A stretch of DNA of 52,029 nucleotides, from the IMG/VR virus record IMGVR_UViG_2869965101_000004; one strand, given 5' to 3'. This document shows positions 19,491 through 43,305 of this stretch, one piece after another. Source of the stretch: a virus. Lineage: Duplodnaviria > Heunggongvirae > Uroviricota > Caudoviricetes. Position numbers and translations under genes: made by a program. The notes under the pieces are model-generated. The model ran no database searches. It was not told where the DNA came from and saw nothing but the letters and a program-made list of their open reading frames with translations. The stretch's first letter is position 1. Each line of letters begins with the position of its first letter.

Positions 19491-19865
19491 ATGCTCATAG
19501 ATTTGGTTTTACCTTACCCGCCGACGGTGAACACTTACTGGCGACGCCGTGGCAGCACATATTTTATCTCGGAGGAGGGAAAGCGTTATCGCCGGGCTGT
19601 GGCGCTTATTGTTCGCCAGCAGCGGCTGAAATTAAGCCTGTCCGGAAGGCTGGCGATAAAGGTGATTGCAGAGCCACCGGATAAGCGTCGTCGCGACCTG
19701 GACAATATCCTGAAAGCACCGCTGGATGCGCTGACGCATGCGGGAGTGTTAATGGACGATGAGCAGTTTGATGAAATCAATATCGTTCGTGGTCAGCCAG
19801 TATCTGGTGGACGTATGGGGGTGAAGATTTACCCCATAATGCATGAAGAGCAGGTCAAAAAATGA
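19491..19865 (+). CDS. rusA: RusA-family Holliday junction resolvase
   Basis: ...DKRRRDLDNILKAPLDALTHAGVLMDDEQ... RusA catalytic motif. Confidence 0.85.
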   Translation: MLIDLVLPYPPTVNTYWRRRGSTYFISEEGKRYRRAVALIVRQQRLKLSLSGRLAIKVIAEPPDKRRRDLDNILKAPLDALTHAGVLMDDEQFDEINIVRGQPVSGGRMGVKIYPIMHEEQVKK

Positions 19866-20683
19866 AACTGGAAGATTTACCGAAATACTACTCCCCAAAA
19901 TCCCCTAGCCTGACCGATGCATCGGCCTCAACGTCAAAAGATGCGCTGAGTATCACTGATGTGATGGCCGCGCAGGGCATGACACAGAATCGGGCTGAGA
20001 TGGGGTTTTCTGCGTTCCTGGGGAAAATGGGCATCAGTATGAATGACAGGGCGCGGGCAACAGAATTACTGGCAGATTATGCACTCAGTCGGTGCGATCG
20101 TGTGGCGGCGTTGAGAAAACTTCCGGCAGAAATAAAACCGGTAGTGATGCGCATTATGGCTTCGTATGCGTTTGAAGATTATGCCCGTAGCGCGGCGAGC
20201 AAAAAACAGTGCCCCTGCTGTCACGGAAAAAAATTTATTGAAAGCGAGGTTTTTACAAACAAGATCCAGTATCCGGATGGTAAGCCACCAGTGTGGGCAA
20301 AGTGCACAAAAGGCGTGTATCCGTCTTACTGGGAAGAATGGAAAAAAGTCAGGGAGGTGGTAAAAGTTGCCTGTCCGGAGTGTGGCGGAAAGGGTGAGGT
20401 TTCCACCGCCTGTAAGGATTGCCGTGGGCGTGGTGTCGCCATTCATCGTGAAGAGTCGGTAAAACGTGGTATGCCTGTTATCAGAGACTGCCAGCGTTGT
20501 GGTGGTCGTGGCTGTGAAAGACTACCATCAACGGAGGCATTTAATGCCATATGCAAAGTGACGAGTGCTATCACGCTTGATACGTGGAAAAAATCAGTGA
20601 AACGCTTTTACGATACGTTGGTGGTTCGGTTTGACATTGAAGAGGCATGGGCGGAGCGGCAGTTAAAGAGGGTAACGCGATAG
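19862..20683 (+). CDS. late-gene antiterminator Q-like protein
   Basis: Position upstream of the late promoter region; multiple CxxC zinc-finger motifs. Confidence 0.65.
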   Translation: MKLEDLPKYYSPKSPSLTDASASTSKDALSITDVMAAQGMTQNRAEMGFSAFLGKMGISMNDRARATELLADYALSRCDRVAALRKLPAEIKPVVMRIMASYAFEDYARSAASKKQCPCCHGKKFIESEVFTNKIQYPDGKPPVWAKCTKGVYPSYWEEWKKVREVVKVACPECGGKGEVSTACKDCRGRGVAIHREESVKRGMPVIRDCQRCGGRGCERLPSTEAFNAICKVTSAITLDTWKKSVKRFYDTLVVRFDIEEAWAERQLKRVTR

Positions 20684-20688
20684 TGTTG

Positions 20689-20735
20689 TTGATTTTTCCC
20701 GAATCTGTGGTAAATTTGCTCTAATGATGGGCGTT
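20689..20735 (+). promoter_or_regulatory. candidate late promoter (PR'-like) and Q-utilisation region
   Basis: TTGATT (20689) and TAAATT about 17 bp downstream, directly after Q. Confidence 0.3.
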
Positions 20736-20764
20736 TTATGCCTGACGTTAGAAGATTTTTTACA

Positions 20765-20789
20765 CCCCGCCGCCTGGCGGGTTTTTTAT
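20765..20789 (+). terminator. intrinsic terminator (tR'-like)
   Basis: CCCGCC-GCCT-GGCGGG hairpin followed by TTTTTT. Confidence 0.5.
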
Positions 20790-20909
20790 GACTGAAATCG
20801 CGTCAGTACAGTAAACGCGCTGGTGGCGGTGAATACCTGTCTTTCAGCTTGCTGGCTTTTTCGACAAGAGTTATTGGTGTGTCACGTTAACCGGAAAAGG
20901 GAAAAAGAC

Positions 20910-21107
20910 ATGCTAAAACAGCAGGATATGACAGAAACCGCCAGAGTGGTGTTTAATGAATTAAGCGTTACCGAACCGGCGACAGTCGGGGAGATAGCGC
21001 AGAATACTTACCTTTCACGCGAACGCTGCCAGTTAATACTGACCCAGCTGGTTATGGCGGGTCTGGCAGACTATCAGTTCGGTTGTTACAGACGCCTTCC
21101 GCAGTGA
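20910..21107 (+). CDS. hypothetical small protein
   Basis: 66-aa ORF from ATG 20910 with RBS. Confidence 0.3.
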   Translation: MLKQQDMTETARVVFNELSVTEPATVGEIAQNTYLSRERCQLILTQLVMAGLADYQFGCYRRLPQ

Positions 21108-21257
21108 AGGCTTTTTTATTTGTGGTAAATGGGCGGCTGGTGGGTGTTAGGGGCACCCACCAGCCATCTGCTCATGCGTTGGGTTCACAAGCAAACCTCA
21201 GGCCCACTGCTTTGCGCAAAAGCAGAATGAGCCTATCAGAGACAGGCTTAATGATCC

Positions 21258-22307
21258 ATGCTTAATACTGTAAAAATATCCAGTTGTGAGTTAATCAACG
21301 CCGACTGCCTGGAATTTATCCGGTCGTTACCCGAAAATTCTGTTGACCTGATAGTCACGGACCCGCCGTACTTTAAAGTGAAGCCTGAGGGCTGGGATAA
21401 CCAGTGGAAGGGCGACGATGATTACCTGAAGTGGCTGGACCAGTGTCTGGCGCAGTTCTGGCGGGTGCTGAAACCTGCCGGAAGTCTTTACCTGTTCTGT
21501 GGTCATCGCCTGGCATCTGATATCGAAATCATGATGCGTGAACGCTTCAGTGTGCTGAACCATATTATCTGGGCGAAGCCTTCCGGACGCTGGAACGGGT
21601 GCAACAAGGAAAGCCTGCGGGCGTATTTCCCCGCCACAGAGCGCATTCTGTTCGCGGAACATTATCAGGGGCCGTATCGTCCGAAAGATGCCGGGTATGA
21701 GGCGAAGGGCAGGGCACTGAAACAGCATGTGATGGCCCCGCTGATTTCTTACTTTCGTGATGCATGCGCGGCCCTGGGGATAACGGCAAAACAGATTGCA
21801 GATGCCACAGGAAAGAAAAACATGGTGTCGCACTGGTTCAGTGCCAGTCAGTGGCAGTTGCCGAACGAAAGCGATTATCTGAAATTACAGGCACTGTTTG
21901 CCAGGGTGGCAGAAGAGAAGCATCAGCGGGGGGAACTGGAAAAGCCCCACCACCAGCTGGTGGATACGTATACTTCACTGAACCGACAGTATGCGGAGCT
22001 GCAGAGTGAATATAAACATCTGCGGCGGTATTTTGGTGTGACGGCGCAGGTGCCGTACACGGATGTGTGGACACATAAACCGGTGCAGTTCTATCCCGGG
22101 AAACATCCGTGCGAAAAACCGGCAGAAATGCTGCAGCAGATAATCAGCGCAAGTAGTCGTCCTGGTGATCTGGTTGCGGATTTTTTCATGGGGTCGGGTT
22201 CAACGGTAAAAGCGGCACTGGCGCTCGGGCGTCGTGCGATTGGCGTTGAACTGGAGACAGGACGTTTTGAGCAGACAGTCAGGGAAGTTCAGGATTTAAT
22301 CGTTTGA
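21258..22307 (+). CDS. DNA methyltransferase (N6-adenine/N4-cytosine type, DPPY motif)
   Basis: Motif IV DPPY (LIVTDPPYF) and AdoMet-binding motif FFMGSGST at the C-terminus. Confidence 0.8.
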   Translation: MLNTVKISSCELINADCLEFIRSLPENSVDLIVTDPPYFKVKPEGWDNQWKGDDDYLKWLDQCLAQFWRVLKPAGSLYLFCGHRLASDIEIMMRERFSVLNHIIWAKPSGRWNGCNKESLRAYFPATERILFAEHYQGPYRPKDAGYEAKGRALKQHVMAPLISYFRDACAALGITAKQIADATGKKNMVSHWFSASQWQLPNESDYLKLQALFARVAEEKHQRGELEKPHHQLVDTYTSLNRQYAELQSEYKHLRRYFGVTAQVPYTDVWTHKPVQFYPGKHPCEKPAEMLQQIISASSRPGDLVADFFMGSGSTVKAALALGRRAIGVELETGRFEQTVREVQDLIV

Positions 22308-22356
22308 AACGGATGAGATTGCAGAATTAATTACGCACCATTATTATTCTGCTCCC

Positions 22357-22432
22357 GGCCCTTTAGCTCAGTGGTGAGAGCGAGCGACTCATAATCGCCA
22401 GGTCGCTGGTTCAAATCCAGCAAGGGCCACCA
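22357..22432 (+). tRNA. tRNA-Ile2 (anticodon CAU, lysidine-type; ileZ-like)
   Basis: Cloverleaf by eye: acceptor GGCCCTT/AAGGGCC, anticodon loop CTCATAA, T-loop TTCAAAT, encoded CCA. Confidence 0.8.
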
Positions 22433-22439
22433 TCACATA

Positions 22440-22513
22440 CCGCCATTAGCTCATCAGGAAAGAGCGCCAGCCTTCGAAGCTGGCTGCGCGGGGTTCAAGT
22501 CCCCGATGGCGGT
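22440..22513 (+). tRNA. tRNA-Arg (anticodon UCG)
   Basis: Acceptor CCGCCAT/ATGGCGG, anticodon loop CTTCGAA, T-arm CGGGG-TTCAAGT-CCCCG; no encoded CCA. Confidence 0.55.
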
Positions 22514-22529
22514 TCATTATCTGTATCCT

Positions 22530-22606
22530 GCGTTGTTAGCTCAGCCGGACAGAGCAATTGCCTTCTAAGCAATCGGTCACTGGTTCGAATACAGTAGAAC
22601 GCGCCA
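22530..22606 (+). tRNA. tRNA-Arg (anticodon UCU)
   Basis: Acceptor GCGTTGT/AGAACGC (one mismatch), anticodon loop CTTCTAA, CCA encoded; one T-stem mismatch. Confidence 0.6.
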
Positions 22607-22617
22607 CACTTATTTTC

Positions 22618-22647
22618 CCTGGCTCGCTTTTGCGGGCTTTTTTTTAA
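22618..22647 (+). terminator. hairpin plus T-run after the tRNA cluster
   Basis: CTCGC-TTTT-GCGGG followed by nine T. Confidence 0.4.
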
Positions 22648-22896
22648 ATGTCTCACAATTCAGGCGGTTGACTGTTGTCTGGTTTGCGGGGAGTTTGTTA
22701 AAAGAAACTGGCATGGTGAATCCCCCTGTGCGGAGGGGCAATCAGCGAGTAGGTATATGGGATAATCGCAGATTCAGGTGCTGGTACTGAATTCACCGGG
22801 AGGCACCCGGCACCATGCAATGGCACATAGCGCCACTCTCCAGCCCCTCTCCGGAGGGGCTGTTTATATTGATTTTGTCAGATGTGAGTAAACTCC

Positions 22897-23253
22897 TTAT
22901 GGACTTTGTTGTTTTAGCCCATAAGGACATATTTGCAGAGTGCAACGGTTATTAAAGCATTCATTCAATACGTTATCTGTATTTGTAGGGCATTCCTGGC
23001 TGTTTTTGATTAAATTCCAGAATGTTTTATTGAATGGTACTACGTTGTAAATGGTTACAGGTAGCACTTTGTTATTGAGCATGATGCCTGTGTGAGTCAG
23101 TGTAAATATACTTTCAGGAGGTAAGAAAGCATCCGATTGATACCAGATTATTAATTTTATTTTACTCCATATGACTGAAAAAGATATTCCGCATGATGGC
23201 TGGATAACTGTATCAATCACAATCCACTTCATTTGGTTTCCTTGTTTATGCAT
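22897..23253 (-). CDS. hypothetical ORF in AT-rich island
   Basis: 118-aa ORF in a visibly AT-rich segment between the tRNAs and the esterase gene. Confidence 0.3.
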
Positions 23254-23477
23254 TGCTGGTGATGTTCTGAAAAGTATAAATGATATTTTTGAATGTAAAC
23301 CATAGAGCAGAATTATTTTTCTGATGTTGTTTATTGTTTATTTAAATGCAGGGTGGTTTATATCTCGTCTTGTAGTTTATCCATGCATATCTGCTTGATG
23401 ATGAGGTTTTTATTTAAGGTATGGTTTTGTGTTTTTTCTGTATTACATGTCAGGTATTTTAAAGAATCATTTTTCAG

Positions 23478-25358
23478 ATGGTGGAAAGAACCATGGCATT
23501 TAAACACTATGATGTTGTCAGGGCGGCGTCGCCGTCAGATCTTGCGGAAAAGCTGACACATAAACTGAAAGAGGGCTGGCAGCCGTTTGGTAGTCCGGTG
23601 GCCATAACCCCTTATACTCTGATGCAGGCGATTGCAGCAGAAGGTGCAGTAATCAGCGCCACCAGCAACCCGGAGTATTACTTTGTTGTGGTTCTGGCAG
23701 GGCAGTCAAACGGCATGTCGTATGGTGAAGGCCTTCCGCTGCCGGGGACATATGACCGTCCGGACCCGCGTATTAAGCAACTGGCGCGTCGCAGTACGGT
23801 GACACCGGGCGGTGCAGCATGCAAATATAACGACATCATTCCGGCGGACCATTGTCTGCATGATGTGCAGGACATGAGCCGTCTTAACCATCCGAAAGCG
23901 GACCTGTCAAAGGGGCAGTACGGAACCGTGGGGCAGGGGCTGCATATCGCCAAAAAACTGCTGCCGTTTATACCGGCGAATGCGGGCATTCTGCTGGTTC
24001 CGTGCTGTCGTGGTGGTTCAGCGTTCACCACCGGAGCTGATGGCACATACAGTGACGCGAGTGGTGCCTCGGAGAATTCAACCCGCTGGGGTGTGGACAA
24101 GCCGCTGTATAAGGACCTTATCGGTCGAACAAAAGCGGCACTGGAGAAGAACCCGAAAAATGTGCTGTTTGCCGTGGTGTGGATGCAGGGGGAATTTGAT
24201 TTTGGCGGTACGCCGGCAAATCATGCCGCACAGTTTGGTGCGCTGGTTGATAAATTCCGTGCAGACCTGGCGGATATGGCAGGCCAGTGCGTCGGTGGCT
24301 CTGCTGGCGGTGTTCCCTGGATATGCGGGGACACGACGTATTTCTGGAAGCAGAAGAACGAATCCACGTACCAGACGGTGTACGGCAGCTATAAAAATAA
24401 AACGGAAAAGAATATCCATTTCGTACCGTTCATGACCGATGAGAACGGGGTGAATGTGCCGACGAACAAACCGGAAGAAGACCCGGACATTCCGGGTATC
24501 GGTTATTACGGTTCGAAATGGCGTGACAGCTCAGCCACCTGGACGTCACAGGACAGGGCGAGCCATTTCAGTTCATGGGCTCGCCGTGGGATTATTTCCG
24601 ACCGTCTGGCAACGGCGATTCTGAGCTGCGCGGGTAAGTCTTCTGCGTTTGTTAATGGTACTGCCGGGGTGGTTGTTCCAGACAGGCCGGTTACCACCTC
24701 AGAGTCTGTAATTTTTTACGATGCCAAAAAAGCTACAGACAATCAGCTGAAACCTTATGGCTGGGACGGTATGTATGGCAGACGCACACTGGTTGATGAC
24801 AGCGGCAATAAAGCTCTGCGAATTGAGAAAAATAACAGCGCGAAATCCTGGTCAATGTACTGTGATATTGCTGCAGACAAGGCAAAACTTTTACTGGAAA
24901 AAGGCGGGGAAATTGCTGTCCGGTTTAAAATCCCCGAAAACGTCAATCTTGAGACAACCAGAAACAAGTATGCCTTTGGTTTGTACTGGCGAATAGCGGA
25001 ATGGCCGGGTGAGGGTGGTGAAGGCCATCTGAGTTCTTTCTTTGTCCAGACAGATAAAGCCAGTATTAATGTTGCATACCATCATACAGTTAATCAACAA
25101 AAAGAACTTGGCACGTTTGGCGCATTCGACCATGACTGGCATACGCTTGCATTTAAATTTAAGGGCAGTAACAGCATTAATGTTACTCCGGTGCTTGATG
25201 GTGTGGATGGACAGGCGTTTGACCTGGTGAAATGGGCCAATACTGCTAATGGACTCAACAGGTTTGTCATTACGGATATTACAGGTAGTGCAGAAACCTA
25301 CCCTGTACTTATTGATACGGTGGAAGTTAAAGCAAACAAAGCTGGAGCAGCCGCATAA
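23478..25358 (+). CDS. prophage sialate O-acetylesterase (NanS-p-like)
   Basis: N-terminal DUF1737-like region and SGNH/SASA motif VVLAGQSNGMSYGEG; same position as in Stx-type phages. Confidence 0.7.
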   Translation: MVERTMAFKHYDVVRAASPSDLAEKLTHKLKEGWQPFGSPVAITPYTLMQAIAAEGAVISATSNPEYYFVVVLAGQSNGMSYGEGLPLPGTYDRPDPRIKQLARRSTVTPGGAACKYNDIIPADHCLHDVQDMSRLNHPKADLSKGQYGTVGQGLHIAKKLLPFIPANAGILLVPCCRGGSAFTTGADGTYSDASGASENSTRWGVDKPLYKDLIGRTKAALEKNPKNVLFAVVWMQGEFDFGGTPANHAAQFGALVDKFRADLADMAGQCVGGSAGGVPWICGDTTYFWKQKNESTYQTVYGSYKNKTEKNIHFVPFMTDENGVNVPTNKPEEDPDIPGIGYYGSKWRDSSATWTSQDRASHFSSWARRGIISDRLATAILSCAGKSSAFVNGTAGVVVPDRPVTTSESVIFYDAKKATDNQLKPYGWDGMYGRRTLVDDSGNKALRIEKNNSAKSWSMYCDIAADKAKLLLEKGGEIAVRFKIPENVNLETTRNKYAFGLYWRIAEWPGEGGEGHLSSFFVQTDKASINVAYHHTVNQQKELGTFGAFDHDWHTLAFKFKGSNSINVTPVLDGVDGQAFDLVKWANTANGLNRFVITDITGSAETYPVLIDTVEVKANKAGAAA

Positions 25359-25704
25359 TTGCTAAAAAAAGCCGCCAGCGGCAGGAATGGAAGCTGGCGG
25401 AGGTAATCCCAATGGAGAATGTAAAGAAAAGATGCTTTCGTACATTGGTTTTTAAATGAAAACAATTCTCATTGTCAACCATAACGGTAAGAAATTATGA
25501 CATTTATTCATCAGGTGATGCTGTACTTCTGTACGGCGGTCTGTGTGCTGTATCTTCTTTCGGGTGGGTACAGGGCTGTGCGCGATTTCTGGTGCAGGCA
25601 GATTGATAAAAGGGCCGCTGAGAAAATCAGCGCCAGTCAGTCAGCCGGAAGCAAACCCGAAGAACCCGTTACTCCTTAACAACCCCTTTCAGCGAGAAAA
25701 TCCC

Positions 25705-25950
25705 ATGTCAGAAATCACATCCCTGGTCACTGCAGAGGCAGTGAAGGAAGTCCTGCGCTCTGAAGAAGTCCGGAGCGCACTGAAACAGAAACTTCGCCAG
25801 AATCTTGAGTCGCGTCTTGATGCAGAAGTGGATGCCATTCTGGATGAGCTGCTGGGCGTAGCAGCGGTTCCTGAGCCGGAAGGTATCGCGGGTGACGGGA
25901 GTGCTTCAGATGGCGGTGAACCTACACCTGACAGCGACATGATGATGTAA
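25705..25950 (+). CDS. hypothetical small acidic protein
   Basis: 82-aa ORF from ATG 25705. Confidence 0.35.
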
Positions 25951-26026
25951 GCATGTGCAAGGGACCATCGGTGTGTGCCGGTGGTCTTTATATTGTTGTG
26001 AGCTTCCGGATTGCGGGAGACGGGGT

Positions 26027-26242
26027 ATGTACCAGATGGAAAAAATCACAACAGGTGTGTCATACACCACGTCAGCGGTGGGAACGGGCTACTGGTTCCT
26101 GCAGTTGCTGGACAGGGTTTCCCCGTCTCAGTGGGCGGCAATAGGCGTGCTGGGGAGTCTGTTGTTTGGGCTGCTGACATATCTGACTAACCTGTATTTC
26201 AAAATCAGAGAGGACCGTCGTAAGGCGGCGCGGGGAGAGTAA
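26027..26242 (+). CDS. S21-type pinholin with dual start motif
   Basis: MYQMEKITT...[35 protein letters not shown]; Met1 and Met4 give antiholin/holin starts. Confidence 0.75.
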
Positions 26243-26246
26243 AGCG

Positions 26247-26591
26247 ATGAAGAAAAAATACGAACTGGTTGTTAAAGGGATAAATAATTACCCGAATAAG
26301 ATTACTGTTACTGTGGCACTGGAAATTGGTGGGTATCCGTCACTGTTGTTGCCAGATGTGGCGATTAGTCTTGACCGTACTGAAGATGCCACGCTGGAGT
26401 TTTACGAAGCTGAGGCGAAAAAGCAGGCGAAGCAGTTTTTCATGGATGTTGCTGCCGGGTTATGTGAAGGGGATGGTCCGTTGCCGGAAAAGCGCCCCGT
26501 AATTTTAGAGGCGCAGGATGTGTTGATAACCTACAGAGGAAAACTACCGGGAATAATTACGGGTTCTCTGAAGACTCCACCGCTGGCCTGA
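26247..26591 (+). CDS. hypothetical protein inside the lysis cassette
   Basis: 114-aa ORF starting 4 nt after the holin stop and ending 50 nt before the endolysin. Confidence 0.5.
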   Translation: MKKKYELVVKGINNYPNKITVTVALEIGGYPSLLLPDVAISLDRTEDATLEFYEAEAKKQAKQFFMDVAAGLCEGDGPLPEKRPVILEAQDVLITYRGKLPGIITGSLKTPPLA

Positions 26592-26641
26592 AGACTTAAC
26601 ATATCCAGGGATTTGAAATCGATAAACCCTGATAAATATCC

Positions 26642-27175
26642 ATGAACACCAAAATCAAATACGGCCTGTCGGCTGCCGTTCTGGCGCTGATTGCCGCAGG
26701 TGCGCCTGCGCCTGAAATCCTCGACCAGTTTCTGGATGAAAAGGAAGGTAACCACACCACGGCATACCGTGATGGCGCGGGTATCTGGACCATCTGCCGC
26801 GGTGCCATCCTGGTGGATAGTAAACCTGTCGTCCCGGGCATGAAGTTGTCGAAGGAAAAATGCGACCAGGTCAACGCCATTGAGCGTGATAAGGCGCTGG
26901 CATGGGTGGAGCGCAATATTAAAGTGCCGCTGACCGAACCCCAGAAAGCGGGTATCGCGTCATTTTGTCCCTATAACATTGGCCCCGGTAAGTGTTTCCC
27001 GTCGACGTTTTACAGACGGATTAATGCTGGTGACCGCAGGGGAGCATGCGAAGCGATTCGCTGGTGGATTAAGGACGGTGGCAGAGACTGCCGTATCCGC
27101 TCAAATAATTGCTACGGTCAGGTATCCCGGCGAGACCAGGAAAGTGCGCTGGCGTGCTGGGACATCGACAGATAA
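26642..27175 (+). CDS. SAR endolysin (GH24 lysozyme)
   Basis: N-terminal signal-anchor-release segment YGLSAAVLALIAAGA and lysozyme core EGNHTTAYRDGAGIWTICRGA. Confidence 0.8.
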   Translation: MNTKIKYGLSAAVLALIAAGAPAPEILDQFLDEKEGNHTTAYRDGAGIWTICRGAILVDSKPVVPGMKLSKEKCDQVNAIERDKALAWVERNIKVPLTEPQKAGIASFCPYNIGPGKCFPSTFYRRINAGDRRGACEAIRWWIKDGGRDCRIRSNNCYGQVSRRDQESALACWDIDR

Positions 27176-27656
27176 GCAGAATATTTTGCTGAAAAATAAG
27201 GCATGAGCACGCGGACGGATAACACGAAATCCTGCGAACTGGCGAAACGTAAGTGAATAAAAGTAAAAACCCCGTTTGTTGGCACCAAGCGGGGTTTTGT
27301 GTTTCTGACCTTGAGTAAGGCAAGGGAGAACATGGCGAAGTATAAACGAATTCTGTTGAGGTTGACCATGAAAAACGGCCTTGAACTGAAAGCGCCTGTA
27401 ACTGATGACATCAGCAGAGCACTGGCTTTTGCCATTAAGTGGATGGCGGTCGGTGTTGCTGTGTCCCCGATGCTGTATGGGCTGGCAAAACTGGTCATTG
27501 CGTTGAAATCGTGAAGGGAGGATTAAGCATGTCAGACAAACTCATAACGCTGGCGAAGATCCTCTGTGTAATTGTCGGCATTTCATTTTCACTAATGCTG
27601 GTTGCTCTTTTTCTTTCCATGGCCTGGATGATGTTGTCTTCGTCGGGGCTGCTGGG

Positions 27657-28130
27657 GTGAACATAAACCGAATGCTTTCCGCGTTTACCGTTATTCTGCT
27701 GGTGGTCTGTGGTGCGCTGTGGCTGGCAACAGACCATTACCGTGATAACGCCATCACCTACAAAGCGCAGCGCGATAAAAAAGCCAGAGAGCTGGAGCTG
27801 GCAAACGCAACCATTACTGACATGCAGCAGCGCCAGCGTGATGTTGCTGCGCTTGATGCCAGATACTCAAGGGAATTAGCCGATGCGAGAGCTGAAAATG
27901 AAACTCTGCGTGCTGATGTTGCCGCTGGTCGTAAGCGCCTGCGGATCAACGCCACCTGCTCCGGTACCGTGCGTGAAGCCACCGGCACCTCCGGAATGGA
28001 TAATGCAACCGGCCCCCGACTGGCAGACACCGCTGAACGGGATTATTTCACCCTCAGAGAGCGGTTGATGACAATGCAGAAGCAACTGGAAGGGGCGCAG
28101 GAATATATCCGCACTCAGTGTATTAACTAG
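27657..28130 (+). CDS. Rz i-spanin
   Basis: N-terminal TM helix, coiled-coil periplasmic domain, follows the endolysin. Confidence 0.8.
27883..28068 (+). CDS. Rz1 o-spanin lipoprotein, embedded in Rz in the +1 frame
   Basis: Lipobox LVVSAC and proline-rich mature part. Confidence 0.7.
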
Positions 28131-28153
28131 TATTTTTGTTATCCGGAGAATGC

Positions 28154-28378
28154 ATGAAGAAATTACTGGTAACCGTAAAGCCTTTTCAGGGAACAATTCC
28201 GTTCCGTATTTTGCAGCGTGGTCGTGTTCTTGTTGAAGGTTCGTTCAGTGGTAAATGTACGCAATTACACTCCCGGACCTTTCAGGTGAATGCCACGAAT
28301 GAAGAGCTAACCGTTGAGTGTACGATGAATGCCGCTAAATGCCGCATGGTATCCGCTGCATTACAGCCAGTGTGTTGA
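28154..28378 (+). CDS. hypothetical small protein
   Basis: ORF MKKLLVTVKPF... after Rz. Confidence 0.3.
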   Translation: MKKLLVTVKPFQGTIPFRILQRGRVLVEGSFSGKCTQLHSRTFQVNATNEELTVECTMNAAKCRMVSAALQPVC

Positions 28379-28716
28379 GCGACCTTATTAACCATGCGCG
28401 GTATTGTCGCCGTATCCCCGCATTAACAGAGACCGCAGCCCGACCGGGAGACTCCTCTGCGCGAGTGTGCGGGGATAATCAAAAACGATACACACCGGGG
28501 TTTACCGCGTTAACGGAGCGCGGCGTTGTCCCCTCATGGTCGCTGGTCCGGTGCGATGGTGGAAGAAACCGGACGATGTGTTACCTCGCAAGCTCTGTTA
28601 TGTCATGTGTCTGATTTGTGATTTAAGTCGGATAATTGTCGTTGCCATTAAGCAGAGGATTGATGACCGACAGGGTGGCATTGTTAGAATAAGACTTATT
28701 CTTATCTGTGCCGGGA

Positions 28717-29381: not shown

Positions 29382-29596
29382 AATGTTTCCCCATATTCAG
29401 TGTTGCTGATTTGTATTATCTGAAGTTGCTTTTACGTTAATTTGATGCAGATCAATCAATACGATAGTAAGGCAGTATGACTTTCCGTGAGACAGATGCT
29501 GGCCAACGTGGGATATTTAACGCGGGTTAACATCGTTGTCAGAGCCGCATGGGTGAGCTGTTGCTACACCCCGGTATTTCCACCACGGAGGCCAGC

Positions 29597-30724
29597 ATGA
29601 ACAACAATAACACATTGTACGTCGGGTTAGATGTTCACAAAGAATCGATTACTGTCGCTTATGCTATCAATTCAGAACCTGTTGAACTGATGGGTAAAAT
29701 TGGCACATCACCTACTGATATTCAGAATCTTTGTAAACGTCTCAGGTCAAAGTCATCGCAGGTCAGTATCGTTTATGAAGCGGGGCCCTGTGGTTATGGA
29801 CTTTATCGTCGGCTGGTGAAATCCGGTTTTGACTGCATGGTCTGCGCCCCCTCACTTATCCCGAAAAAACCGGGGGAGCGGGTTAAAACCGATCGCCGTG
29901 ATGCCATCAGACTTGTGCGTTCACTGCGTGCAGGAGATCTTTCTGCTGTCTACGTACCCGGCATTGAAGATGAGGCATTCCGGGATTTGGCCCGGGCATG
30001 GGCATCTGCCCGCGATGATTTACGGCATGCAAGGCAACGTCTGAAATCGTTTCTTCTGGTTCATGGGGTCCATTATGTCGGGCGAGCAGATTGGGGCCCT
30101 GCACACCGACGCTGGCTCAGCAAATACTCATTCGAAAGTCCCTGGCGACAATTAGCTTTTGACGAACACCGTCGTACAATAGAAGACCGGCAGGCACAAT
30201 GTGAACGGCTGGAATCCGCCCTGAAGGAGGCCGTTACCGAATGGAGGCTGTATCCGGTAGTAGAGGCGCTGCAAGCCATGCGAGGGATTCAGTTTATTAC
30301 TGCGGTTGGATTAATTTCTGAACTGGGTGATCTGACCCGTTTTGAACATCCACGACAACTGATGTCATGGTTTGGTATCACGCCATCAGAATATTCATCG
30401 GGTGGAAGCAGACATCAGGGCAGCATTACCAAAGCCGGAAACAGCTATGCCAGAAAGCTATTGGTCGAGGCAGCGTGGAGTTACCGTCATCCGGCACGCA
30501 TCAGTCCGGCAATACAAAAAAGGCAGGAAAATTTACCCCGCCCCGTCATTGACAGAGCATGGGATGCTCAACTCAGGCTTTGTAAGAGGTATCGAAAACT
30601 TCAGGCCAAAGGAAAGAATGTCAATATTACAATTGTTGCTGTTGCACGTGAGCTGGCGGGTTTTATCTGGGATATGGGCCGAATAGCAATGTCTGTCGCA
30701 CAACAACCACAATGTCACAAATAA
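29597..30724 (+). CDS. IS110-family (DEDD) transposase/recombinase
   Basis: N-terminal LYVGLDVHKESI... RuvC-like start and C-terminal ...QFITAVGLISELGDLTRFEHPRQLMSWFGITPSEYSSGG. Confidence 0.8.
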   Translation: MNNNNTLYVGLDVHKESITVAYAINSEPVELMGKIGTSPTDIQNLCKRLRSKSSQVSIVYEAGPCGYGLYRRLVKSGFDCMVCAPSLIPKKPGERVKTDRRDAIRLVRSLRAGDLSAVYVPGIEDEAFRDLARAWASARDDLRHARQRLKSFLLVHGVHYVGRADWGPAHRRWLSKYSFESPWRQLAFDEHRRTIEDRQAQCERLESALKEAVTEWRLYPVVEALQAMRGIQFITAVGLISELGDLTRFEHPRQLMSWFGITPSEYSSGGSRHQGSITKAGNSYARKLLVEAAWSYRHPARISPAIQKRQENLPRPVIDRAWDAQLRLCKRYRKLQAKGKNVNITIVAVARELAGFIWDMGRIAMSVAQQPQCHK

Positions 30725-41526: not shown

Positions 41527-41716
41527 ACTACAGGCGCTGCGTCAGGCACGCCTTGATTTATTAACCGGTAAACGGGTGGTGTCTGTCCAGAAAGATGGTC
41601 GCAGAATTGAATATACGGCGGCTTCTCTGGATGAGCTTAACCGGGCGATCAATGATGCGGAGTCGGTACTGGGGACAACCCGACGTCGCCGTCGTCCGCT
41701 GGGAGTGAGGTTATGA
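41510..41716 (+). CDS. W: head-tail joining protein W
   Basis: 68 aa, ..LTGKRVVSVQKDGRRIEYTAAS.. like lambda gpW. Confidence 0.85.
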   Translation: MVTVAELQALRQARLDLLTGKRVVSVQKDGRRIEYTAASLDELNRAINDAESVLGTTRRRRRPLGVRL

Positions 41717-43305
41717 AACGAACGCCTGTCCTGATTGATGTGAACGGCGTTCCGCTTCGTGAGAGTCTCAGCTACAACGGGGGCGGCGCAGGATTTGGTG
41801 GGCAAATGGCGGAGTGGTTGCCACCGGCGCAGAGTGCCGATGCAGCCCTGCTGCCTGCGTTGCGTCTGGGGAATGCCCGGGCAGATGATCTGGTGCGCAA
41901 TAACGGGATAGCGGCCAATGCGGTGGCCCTGCATAAGGATCATATTGTCGGGCATATGTTTCTGATCAGCTACCGTCCGAACTGGCGCTGGCTGGGGATG
42001 CGGGAGACTGCGGCAAAAAGTTTTGTCGATGAGGTGGAGGCGGCCTGGTCGGAATACGCCGAAGGGATGTTTGGCGAGATCGACGTGGAAGAGAAACGCA
42101 CGTTTACGGAATTTATTCGTGAAGGTGTGGGCGTTCATGCGTTTAACGGCGAAATCTTTGTGCAGCCGGTCTGGGATACGGAGAGCACGCAACTGTTTCG
42201 TACGCGTTTTAAAGCCGTGAGTCCGAAACGGGTGGACACGCCAGGACACGGTATGGGGAACCGTTTTCTGCGGGCCGGTGTGGAGGTCGATCGATATGGT
42301 CGTGCCGTTGCGTACCATATCTGTGAGGATGATTTTCCGTTCTCTGGGAGTGGACGATGGGAACGGATCCCGCGTGAACTTCCCACCGGGCGTCCGGCCA
42401 TGCTGCATATTTTCGAGCCGGTGGAGGACGGGCAGACCCGTGGGGCCAATCAGTTTTACAGCGTAATGGAACGGCTGAAGATGCTCGATTCCCTGCAGGC
42501 AACACAGCTTCAGTCGGCCATAGTGAAGGCGATGTATGCAGCGACGATTGAAAGTGACCTTGATACCGAAAAGGCCTTTGAATATATCGCCGGTGCGCCG
42601 CAGGGGCAGAAGGATAATCCGCTTATTAATATTCTGGATAAGTTCTCCACCTGGTATGACACGAATAGCGTGACGCTGGGCGGTGTCAAAATTCCGCACC
42701 TTTTCCCCGGTGATGATCTGAAACTTCAGACCGCGCAGGATTCAGACAATGGATTTTCGGCGCTTGAACAGGCGCTGCTGCGGTATATCGCCGCCGGTCT
42801 TGGCGTTTCCTACGAACAGTTGTCCCGTGATTACTCGAAGGTCAGTTATTCAAGTGCCCGCGCATCCGCCAATGAGTCGTGGCGCTATTTTATGGGGCGG
42901 CGAAAATTTATTGCGTCCCGGCTGGCCACGCAGATGTTTTCCTGCTGGCTGGAAGAGGCACTTCTTCGGGGGATTATTCGTCCGCCACGGGCACGTTTTG
43001 ATTTTTATCAGGCGCGATCAGCCTGGTCACGGGCTGAGTGGATTGGAGCCGGAAGAATGGCCATTGACGGGCTCAAGGAGGTTCAGGAATCAGTGATGCG
43101 CATTGAGGCCGGACTGAGCACGTATGAGAAAGAGCTGGCGCTGATGGGCGAGGATTATCAGGACATTTTCCGCCAGCAGGTCAGGGAATCTGCAGAGCGG
43201 GAAAAAGCCGGACTCTCACGTCCGGTGTGGATAGCGCAGGCGTATCAGCAGCAGATAGCGGAGAGTCGCAGGCCGGAAGAGGAGACAACACCACGTGAGA
43301 CGTAA
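41713..43305 (+). CDS. B: portal protein B
   Basis: 530 aa, lambda gpB-like (..FEPVEDGQTRGAN.FYSVME..). Confidence 0.9.
   Translation: MKRTPVLIDVNGVPLRESLSYNGGGAGFGGQMAEWLPPAQSADAALLPALRLGNARADDLVRNNGIAANAVALHKDHIVGHMFLISYRPNWRWLGMRETAAKSFVDEVEAAWSEYAEGMFGEIDVEEKRTFTEFIREGVGVHAFNGEIFVQPVWDTESTQLFRTRFKAVSPKRVDTPGHGMGNRFLRAGVEVDRYGRAVAYHICEDDFPFSGSGRWERIPRELPTGRPAMLHIFEPVEDGQTRGANQFYSVMERLKMLDSLQATQLQSAIVKAMYAATIESDLDTEKAFEYIAGAPQGQKDNPLINILDKFSTWYDTNSVTLGGVKIPHLFPGDDLKLQTAQDSDNGFSALEQALLRYIAAGLGVSYEQLSRDYSKVSYSSARASANESWRYFMGRRKFIASRLATQMFSCWLEEALLRGIIRPPRARFDFYQARSAWSRAEWIGAGRMAIDGLKEVQESVMRIEAGLSTYEKELALMGEDYQDIFRQQVRESAEREKAGLSRPVWIAQAYQQQIAESRRPEEETTPRET

Follow-up and report, generated by a model that had tools for sequence, protein, structure and literature searches.

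The founding member of the DUF1327 family is YdfR of the Escherichia coli K-12 Qin prophage (b1555, P76160), and the family takes its name from the ydfR gene, which has essQ and rrrQ as its neighbors. Goepel et al. (2026, PMC13232886) used RNase G as the bait of a two-hybrid screen and recovered residues 1-72 of K-12 YdfR on three occasions. In further two-hybrid assays K-12 YdfR interacts with RNase E 1-597, signals are stronger with RNase E constructs that hold the catalytic half of the enzyme, and full-length YdfR with a short linker interacts with Rne1-597 only (PMC13232886). Rne1-598-FLAG was moreover co-purified by Strep-YdfR; the eluate was rich in DNase-resistant nucleic acid and the lysates were not nuclease-treated, so the interaction between YdfR and RNase E is possibly bridged by RNA (PMC13232886). 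Overexpression of K-12 YdfR changed few transcripts and caused no growth defect, and under standard growth ydfR itself yielded almost no RNA-seq reads (PMC13232886). In a single screen, ASKA overexpression of ydfR raised the streptomycin MIC 3-fold (Li et al. 2026, PMC12924614). Song et al. (2014, PMC3985665) linked a decrease in RNase G, by way of modulated 16S rRNA processing, to resistance against low streptomycin or kanamycin. If YdfR inhibited RNase G/E, the rise in streptomycin MIC would, we infer, be accounted for.

Here we analyze a 114-codon open reading frame in the lysis cassette of a caudoviricete prophage. The stretch of DNA analyzed, 52,029 nucleotides of the IMG/VR record IMGVR_UViG_2869965101_000004, is referred to below as the window. 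An earlier sequence-only reading had described the frame as a gene of unrecognized family inserted between holin and endolysin, and had offered it as a candidate lysis regulator or moron.

Results

Layout of the lysis cassette

The frame begins with an ATG at 26247 on the plus strand and runs for 114 codons to a TGA at 26589-26591. It is preceded by the holin stop, TAA at 26240-26242, and a 4-nt spacer, AGCG (26243-26246), and is followed by a 50-nt gap (26592-26641) that ends at the lysozyme start at 26642. The position given by the sequence-only reading, 4 nt past the holin stop and 50 nt before the endolysin, is therefore exact. The element GGGGAGAG, which lies within the 3' end of the holin gene and 7 nt before the ATG, makes a good ribosome-binding site for the frame. 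The features of the cassette, with the evidence for each, are the following.

26027..26242, plus strand: S21-type (class II) holin (PF04971 'Bacteriophage P21 holin S', E 9e-33; phrog_9876/phrog_20 'holin')
26232..26239, plus strand: Shine-Dalgarno sequence GGGGAGAG of the 114-aa ORF (read from the sequence)
26247..26591, plus strand: YdfR-family (DUF1327) gene, 114 aa and TGA (PF07041, phrog_406, RefSeq name, similarity to K-12 YdfR)
26247..26465, plus strand: core domain, codons 1-73 (AF2 model, dN/dS, 72-aa version in Evi, PMC13232886)
26466..26588, plus strand: tail, codons 74-114 (low pLDDT and weak constraint; absent from K-12 YdfR and Evi)
26583..26587, plus strand: deletion junction (comparison with the 176-aa form at locus L029)
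26592..26641, plus strand: A/T-rich 50-nt lysozyme leader (comparison of 23 distinct leader sequences)
26251..26668, plus strand: module that sets this cassette apart from a ydfR-less S21-type cassette (blastn against POCJ13)
26642..27175, plus strand: phage lysozyme (PF00959, E 2.8e-24; phrog_7 'endolysin')
27657..28130, plus strand: Rz i-spanin (PF03245, E 7e-50)
27883..28068, plus strand: Rz1 o-spanin, embedded in Rz (PF06085, E 1.5e-19)

The lysozyme is probably of the SAR type, judging by the Ala/Gly-rich hydrophobic stretch at its N-terminus. The frame has the same orientation as the lysis genes, and the sole match to a terminator consensus between holin and lysozyme is a weak one that falls inside the frame itself (26327-26342), so that co-transcription with the lysis genes, as had been proposed, is almost certain. 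No promoter-like site was found on the plus strand from 22000 to 28662. The encoded protein has a pI of 5.5 and no transmembrane or signal-like segment, its highest 19-residue Kyte-Doolittle mean being 1.18, in agreement with the earlier remark that it lacks an obvious signal peptide.

We considered whether the frame might be a chance or untranslated one. This was ruled out by dN/dS, the Shine-Dalgarno sequence and conservation: the frame has a full-length DUF1327 match, a dN/dS of ~0.2 over codons 1-72, and the same slot in 89 of 91 loci.

Several other features of the cassette are worth recording. The holin gene opens with a dual-start motif, M-Y-Q-M (26027..26038), that has no lysine between its starts. 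The dual-start motif of S21 is MKSM, in which a lysine stands between the two starts, and the missing lysine could change the antiholin-to-holin balance. The protein sequence of the window holin is found in many Stx2a phages. A 13-bp terminator-like hairpin (25960..25989) separates the DUF826 gene (25705..25950) from the holin start, within the presumed late transcript. The slot between lysozyme and Rz (27176..27656) holds a strong terminator-like hairpin at 27266..27298, with a 13-bp stem, an A-run before it and a T-run after it, and two predicted membrane ORFs, one of 60 aa at 27332..27514 (phrog_1115) and one of 43 aa at 27529..27660 (phrog_4906). In BP-4795 and POCJ13 this slot is occupied by an antirepressor gene (ant).

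Upstream of the cassette, the late region from 19862 to 25358 is laid out like that of a Stx phage and carries no stx. It contains the following genes.

19862..20683: Q antiterminator
21258..22307: DNA methyltransferase
22357..22606: three tRNAs, the first of them Met-CAT by ARAGORN and Ile in a related RefSeq record
22897..23253, minus strand: IraM-like gene
23478..25358: NanS-like esterase of 626 aa

The frame is a YdfR-family gene

We found that the 114-aa protein matches PF07041 (DUF1327) with 153.1 bits (E 2.4e-45), residues 1-112 aligning to profile positions 1-92 of 93; the curated gathering cut-off of this model is 25 bits. The protein also matches phrog_406 ('unknown function') with an E value of 4e-64, and DNA 99.7% identical to the window carries the RefSeq label 'YdfR family protein'. 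In a BLASTP comparison with K-12 YdfR (NC_000913), 35 of 74 residues are identical (47% over residues 1-74, E 5e-23). It is essentially certain, then, that the frame is a YdfR-family gene. The family that the sequence-only reading did not recognize is a curated one, with both a Pfam entry and a RefSeq name, and the gene is already known, very common and found here in its usual place.

Other collections add little to this assignment. No NCBIfam model matches the window protein, Pfam gives it no RraA/RraB family match, and neither Pfam, PHROG nor NCBIfam links it to any lysis protein. PADLOC returned no match at E <= 0.1 for the window protein and three longer family members. A profile search against PDB sequences gave no match at E <= 10. 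Of the two kinds of search that had been proposed for this gene, profile searches thus led to DUF1327, whereas structure searches with the window protein returned no significant match. Homology to a known lysis-cassette component had been named as an outcome that would count against a novel insertion. The gene does prove to be a known occupant of its slot, but one without a demonstrated lysis function.

A common gene in a fixed slot

Of 5426 complete E. coli genomes, 3007 have megablast matches to the 345 nt of the gene, some of them at as many as 8 separate places. By tblastn, 101 phage records carry the gene, all with Escherichia hosts, and among the phages that have it are H-19B, BP-4795, Stx2 phage 86 and many Stx1a and Stx2c phages. 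The S21-type holin is present in 434 phage records, and if all 101 fall among these, the insertion occurs in ~23% of holin-bearing records. The earlier statement that the endolysin normally follows the holin in such cassettes is roughly right on this count, and the ydfR insertion is a common variant rather than an oddity.

The family is narrow. It comprises 274-334 clusters at 90% identity, and an exhaustive phmmer search of 1.84 billion proteins gave 51 representatives at 50% identity. A profile search with an alignment of the N-terminal domain (N-domain) returned 334 clusters, and all of the 120 listed carry PF07041; no distant relatives or new contexts appear among these 120 matches. In a collection with one genome per species, the gene is confined to Escherichia and Shigella, apart from two metagenome bins that are labelled otherwise. 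These two bins (L008 and L010), labelled Veillonella parvula and Bacillota, hold Qin-like essQ-ydfR-rrrQ DNA, which is most likely E. coli contamination.

The order holin, ydfR, lysozyme recurs across the 91 loci examined, and in 89 of the 91 the ydfR ATG lies 7 nt past the last holin codon. Wherever the flanks are intact, ydfR is enclosed by an S21-type holin and a lysozyme (89/91 and 88/91). One of the two remaining loci is cut by a contig end, and the other, an IMG/VR locus (L043), has no full holin match. No other locus that has room upstream of ydfR lacks a full-length holin match, and the holin of L043 may be disrupted. The distance from the ydfR ATG to the lysozyme ATG is 395 nt in 65 of the 91 loci, as it is in the window, and elsewhere ranges from 307 to 1259 nt. 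A protein 100% identical to that of the window is encoded at 17 IMG/VR loci. YdfR is thus an accessory gene with a fixed slot in one lineage of S21-type cassettes in Escherichia/Shigella lambdoid (pro)phages.

Constraint and predicted fold reside in the N-terminal domain

The constant part of the family is residues 1-72, which occur in two allelic types that are ~45% identical. Between the types, codons 1-72 show a saturated dS (about 2), a dN of 0.43 and a dN/dS of ~0.2; inside the K-12 type, dN/dS over the same codons is mostly 0.2-0.45, with a maximum of 0.68. Codons 73-110 have a dS of 0.07-0.26 and a dN/dS that is mostly 0.1-1.0 and exceeds 1 in a few close pairs. With dS this low, the conservation of the tail points to recent shared ancestry, not to strong selection.

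An AF2 model of the protein places antiparallel strands at residues 5-14, 18-27 and 38-43 and a helix at 50-73, with block pLDDT values of 73-90 over residues 1-73 and of <50 for residues 77-114. A model of the 176-aa family member shows the same N-domain, a stretch of low confidence (pLDDT <50) at 73-116 and a helical C-terminal module. The best-conserved motif, R44-x-E46-G-A-x-L50-E-F-Y-E-A, lies at the start of the helix. The net charge of the N-domain is -1 in the window and -5 in K-12, and a domain that is acidic to neutral does not favor direct RNA binding. On this evidence only residues 1-73, a predicted beta-beta-beta-alpha domain, look functional, and residues 74-114 are a leftover linker from a longer form.

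Three candidate assignments were rejected. The tail (residues 74-112) does not qualify as a functional motif given its very low dS, its dN/dS of up to 1 and its pLDDT of <50 in both models. A double-stranded RNA-binding domain (dsRBD) is contradicted by the first helix, which is missing from the model, and found no dsrm profile match or significant structural match. A holin, antiholin or other membrane lysis regulator would require a transmembrane or SAR segment, which is absent, and the AF2 model is that of a soluble domain.

The start site of ydfR and the endolysin leader

POCJ13 encodes a holin of identical protein sequence to that of the window and has no ydfR; only 4 nt separate its holin stop from the ATG of the lysozyme that follows. 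The lysozymes of POCJ13 and the window share 162 of 177 residues (92%). In a blastn comparison the homology between window and POCJ13 extends to 26250 and resumes at 26669, and on these limits the inserted module comprises ydfR, the 50-nt leader and lysozyme codons 1-9. A comparison of the junctions of POCJ13, K-12, 2H10 and Evi indicates that the GGGGAGAG element serves the endolysin in ydfR-less cassettes. Because the start of ydfR coincides with the endolysin start in those cassettes, ydfR uses the holin-embedded ribosome-binding site and has taken over a start site that otherwise serves the endolysin.

No Shine-Dalgarno sequence is seen in the A/T-rich endolysin leader (26592-26641). The last 22-48 nt of the leader ('..CGATAAAyCCTGATAAATATCC ATG') are kept in all ydfR-bearing cassettes, whatever lies upstream (23 distinct leaders). 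The leader RNA folds no better than shuffled sequences (z -0.49), and Rfam has no match in it. The K-12 genes overlap, with ATGA containing both the stop of ydfR and the start of rrrQ.

This arrangement invites the reading that ydfR acts mainly in cis, its translation setting the amount of endolysin through coupling or uncoupling of holin (S) and endolysin (R) expression, the protein being incidental. Such a role would suit a gene that holds the endolysin's coupled start 4 nt past the holin stop and leaves the endolysin with a 50-nt leader in which no Shine-Dalgarno sequence is seen, and the ATGA overlap of K-12 would suit it as well. The distance between the ydfR and lysozyme ATGs varies from 307 to 1259 nt, however, so coupling is not conserved. 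Moreover, the amino acids of codons 1-72 are under purifying selection despite saturated synonymous change, and the models contain a confidently folded domain. We therefore regard a mainly cis role as very unlikely.

Modular C-termini and the origin of the 114-aa form

Family members are 72 aa (Evi, the N-domain only), 103 aa (K-12), 114, 176 and 183 aa, and up to 329 aa in length. The 176-aa form at L029 is 99.1% identical to window positions 26247-26582, nucleotides 1-336 of the gene. It then contains 474 nt that are missing from the window (L029 3337..3810), after which homology resumes at window position 26588. The missing segment encodes a helical C-terminal module together with a convergent minus-strand ORF of 91 aa (phrog_18136), and the junction is flanked by the short repeats CTGAAGAC..CCACC[G/A]. 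The window copy is thus a deletion derivative of the 176-aa form, formed between short repeats.

Elsewhere in the window, the morphogenesis region contains two pairs of equal-length ORFs in opposite orientation, one pair of 391 aa (29549..30724, plus strand, and 38236..39411, minus strand) and one of 530 aa (31017..32609, minus strand, and 41713..43305, plus strand). These pairs look like duplicated insertion sequences, and such duplications may have rearranged or inactivated the prophage.

A truncated gene in a prophage with IS-like duplications might be a functionless, decaying remnant, and both the deletion from the 176-aa form and the resemblance of the duplicated 391-aa and 530-aa ORFs to IS copies agree with this. 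Yet the N-domain is intact, and the 114-aa form is the commonest, as reflected in the 65 of 91 loci that share its 395-nt spacing. The identical protein at 17 IMG/VR loci and the occurrence of this form in the inducible phages BP-4795 and H-19B likewise argue against decay, and we consider it improbable that the window copy is a mere remnant.

Minus-strand ORFs also follow ydfR in other phages, phrog_2572 in 2H10 and phrog_25324 in Evi, and are unrelated to one another. From the differing C-terminal modules and the three unrelated minus-strand ORFs, the gap between holin and endolysin genes (the S-R gap) in the ydfR cassette lineage is a cargo hot spot. Pfam finds nothing above threshold for the C-terminal modules of the longer members or for the three minus-strand ORFs, and in PHROGs all of them are of 'unknown function'. 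As the modules and minus-strand ORFs belong to no known family, the domain fusions give no clue to function.

A cargo hot spot would be a natural place for an accessory gene directed at the host or at competitors, acting in anti-defense, exclusion or benefit to the lysogen and unrelated to RNA decay or lysis. The variable C-terminal modules, with members of 72 to 329 aa, and the three unrelated minus-strand ORFs after ydfR are in keeping with such a function, as is the restriction of the family to Escherichia/Shigella, a range that a young accessory gene would be expected to have. A further point in its favor is that two-hybrid screens with RNase E yield many hits (PMC13232886). Set against this are the lack of a PADLOC match, the lack of a promoter-like site on the plus strand between 22000 and 28662 and the almost nil expression in the K-12 lysogen (PMC13232886), and nothing positive favors any particular alternative. 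We consider an accessory function of this kind doubtful, though a serious contender. The suggestion of a moron in the sequence-only reading, if taken in the strict sense of a gene with its own promoter and expression in the lysogen, finds no support, given the same absence of a promoter-like site and the near-zero RNA-seq reads of K-12 ydfR.

Discussion

The position of ydfR naturally raises the question of whether its product regulates lysis timing, as a cytoplasmic factor that tunes either the pinholin, for example in its antiholin-to-holin balance, or the SAR endolysin, in its release or activation. An S21-type holin and lysozyme flank ydfR in every locus with intact flanks, and strict linkage of this kind would also fit a lysis-related role. 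The gene is translated from a site that otherwise serves the endolysin, and the window holin has an unusual dual start, M-Y-Q-M, that lacks the lysine. On the other side, YdfR has neither a transmembrane segment nor a signal peptide, and the antiholins and releasins known to us are membrane proteins. Pfam, PHROG and NCBIfam give no link to lysis proteins. POCJ13, in which an identical holin protein and a 92%-identical lysozyme occur without ydfR, bears no sign of co-adaptation.

According to PMC13232886, a genetic screen cited there scored ydfR as important for envelope integrity; ydfR goes unmentioned in the main text of the envelope-screen paper (PMC3879167), and the envelope phenotype of the Keio deletion could, we infer, be a polar effect on the downstream rrrQ. 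Overexpression of the K-12 homologue has no growth phenotype (PMC13232886). What speaks for the lysis regulator proposed in the sequence-only reading is thus the position of the gene, and a soluble product, a closely similar cassette that dispenses with the gene and the lack of a growth defect on overexpression all speak against it. We judge a lysis-timing role to be unlikely. A YdfR that did tune lysis by pinholin and SAR endolysin would represent a novel type of soluble regulator of lysis.

The reading that we tentatively prefer, while holding it to be short of probable, is that the window YdfR is a late-expressed soluble modulator that binds RNase E/G through its N-domain, is probably inhibitory and has no part in lysis. 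The 72-residue region that is sufficient for interaction with RNase E/G in K-12 YdfR has its counterpart in the window protein; binding to RNase G or the N-terminal half of RNase E is the mark of the group II proteins of Goepel et al. 2026. Late in infection, the N-domain would attach to RNase E, at its catalytic half, and to the paralogous RNase G, by direct contact or through an RNA bridge. Bound YdfR would dampen the action of these enzymes, and RNA processing or decay would be altered during expression of the long late transcript, on which the genes for lysis and morphogenesis lie, joined by stx in related Stx phages. YdfR would in this model stand outside the holin-endolysin-spanin machinery. 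Counting against the RNase E/G reading, the experiments were all performed on the K-12 allele, whose N-domain is only 47% identical to that of the window and whose tail is different. The possible bridging by RNA, the interaction of full-length YdfR with Rne1-597 alone, the small number of transcripts affected, the single screen behind the streptomycin result and the charge of the N-domain weigh in the same direction.

As a gene, ydfR is ordinary: RefSeq annotates it, K-12 has it, and a pathogenic E. coli genome may have it in as many as 8 places. With a presence in more than half of complete genomes, ydfR is among the most widespread uncharacterized phage genes in E. coli, and its place in Stx1 and Stx2c phages is on the late transcript, after stx and adjoining the genes for toxin release. 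If the RNase E/G lead is true, lambdoid phages would join T4, T7 and phiKZ in manipulating host RNA decay, and the gene could bear on toxin yield and on low-level aminoglycoside tolerance. A stronger form of this proposal, in which YdfR is the first RNase E/G-directed factor of temperate lambdoid phages and prolongs the life of the late transcript, so that more lysis proteins, more virions and, from Stx phages, more toxin are made, strikes us as rather unlikely.

Comparison with known systems

The Qin prophage provides the founding parallel. There, as in the window, ydfR follows the gene of a class II holin (EssQ) after a 4-nt spacer and precedes that of a lysozyme (RrrQ), rzpQ/rzoQ come next, and the N-terminal domains of the two proteins are homologous. 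The differences lie downstream of this domain: K-12 YdfR is 103 aa long and ends in an unrelated basic tail of 30 aa, whereas the window protein has a 41-aa 'GLCEGD...KTPP' tail, and in place of the K-12 overlap between ydfR stop and rrrQ start, the window cassette has a 50-nt untranslated leader.

A still closer match is found in Stx phages. ORF47 of BP-4795 (Stx1) and an unannotated ORF of H-19B are the same 345-nt gene, with 97.4% protein identity and the same 4-nt and 50-nt spacers. In these phages the gene lies downstream of stx and a NanS-like esterase, whereas the window prophage is without stx, and the slot between endolysin and Rz holds two tiny membrane ORFs in the window versus ant in BP-4795.

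The S21-71 antiholin, T4 RI and the Mu endolysin regulators are, like the window YdfR, encoded in or next to lysis cassettes. These regulators are membrane-inserted or periplasmic. The window YdfR, by contrast, has no hydrophobic segment and no sequence link to antiholins or endolysin regulators.

If the RNase lead is correct, the nearest functional analogue is T4 Srd, for which binding to the N-terminal half of RNase E has been reported (cited in PMC13232886). The phage that encodes Srd is virulent, and Srd stimulates host mRNA degradation by RNase E, whereas YdfR is proposed to dampen the enzyme; K-12 YdfR differs further in that it also bound RNase G (PMC13232886). The phiKZ protein Dip (gp37) and the host proteins RraA/RraB are likewise described as protein inhibitors of RNase E or of the degradosome (PMC4980113; PMC13232886). 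The contact sites differ: Dip associates with RNA-binding sites of RNase E, RraA/RraB attach to its scaffolding domain, and YdfR binds the N-terminal catalytic half.
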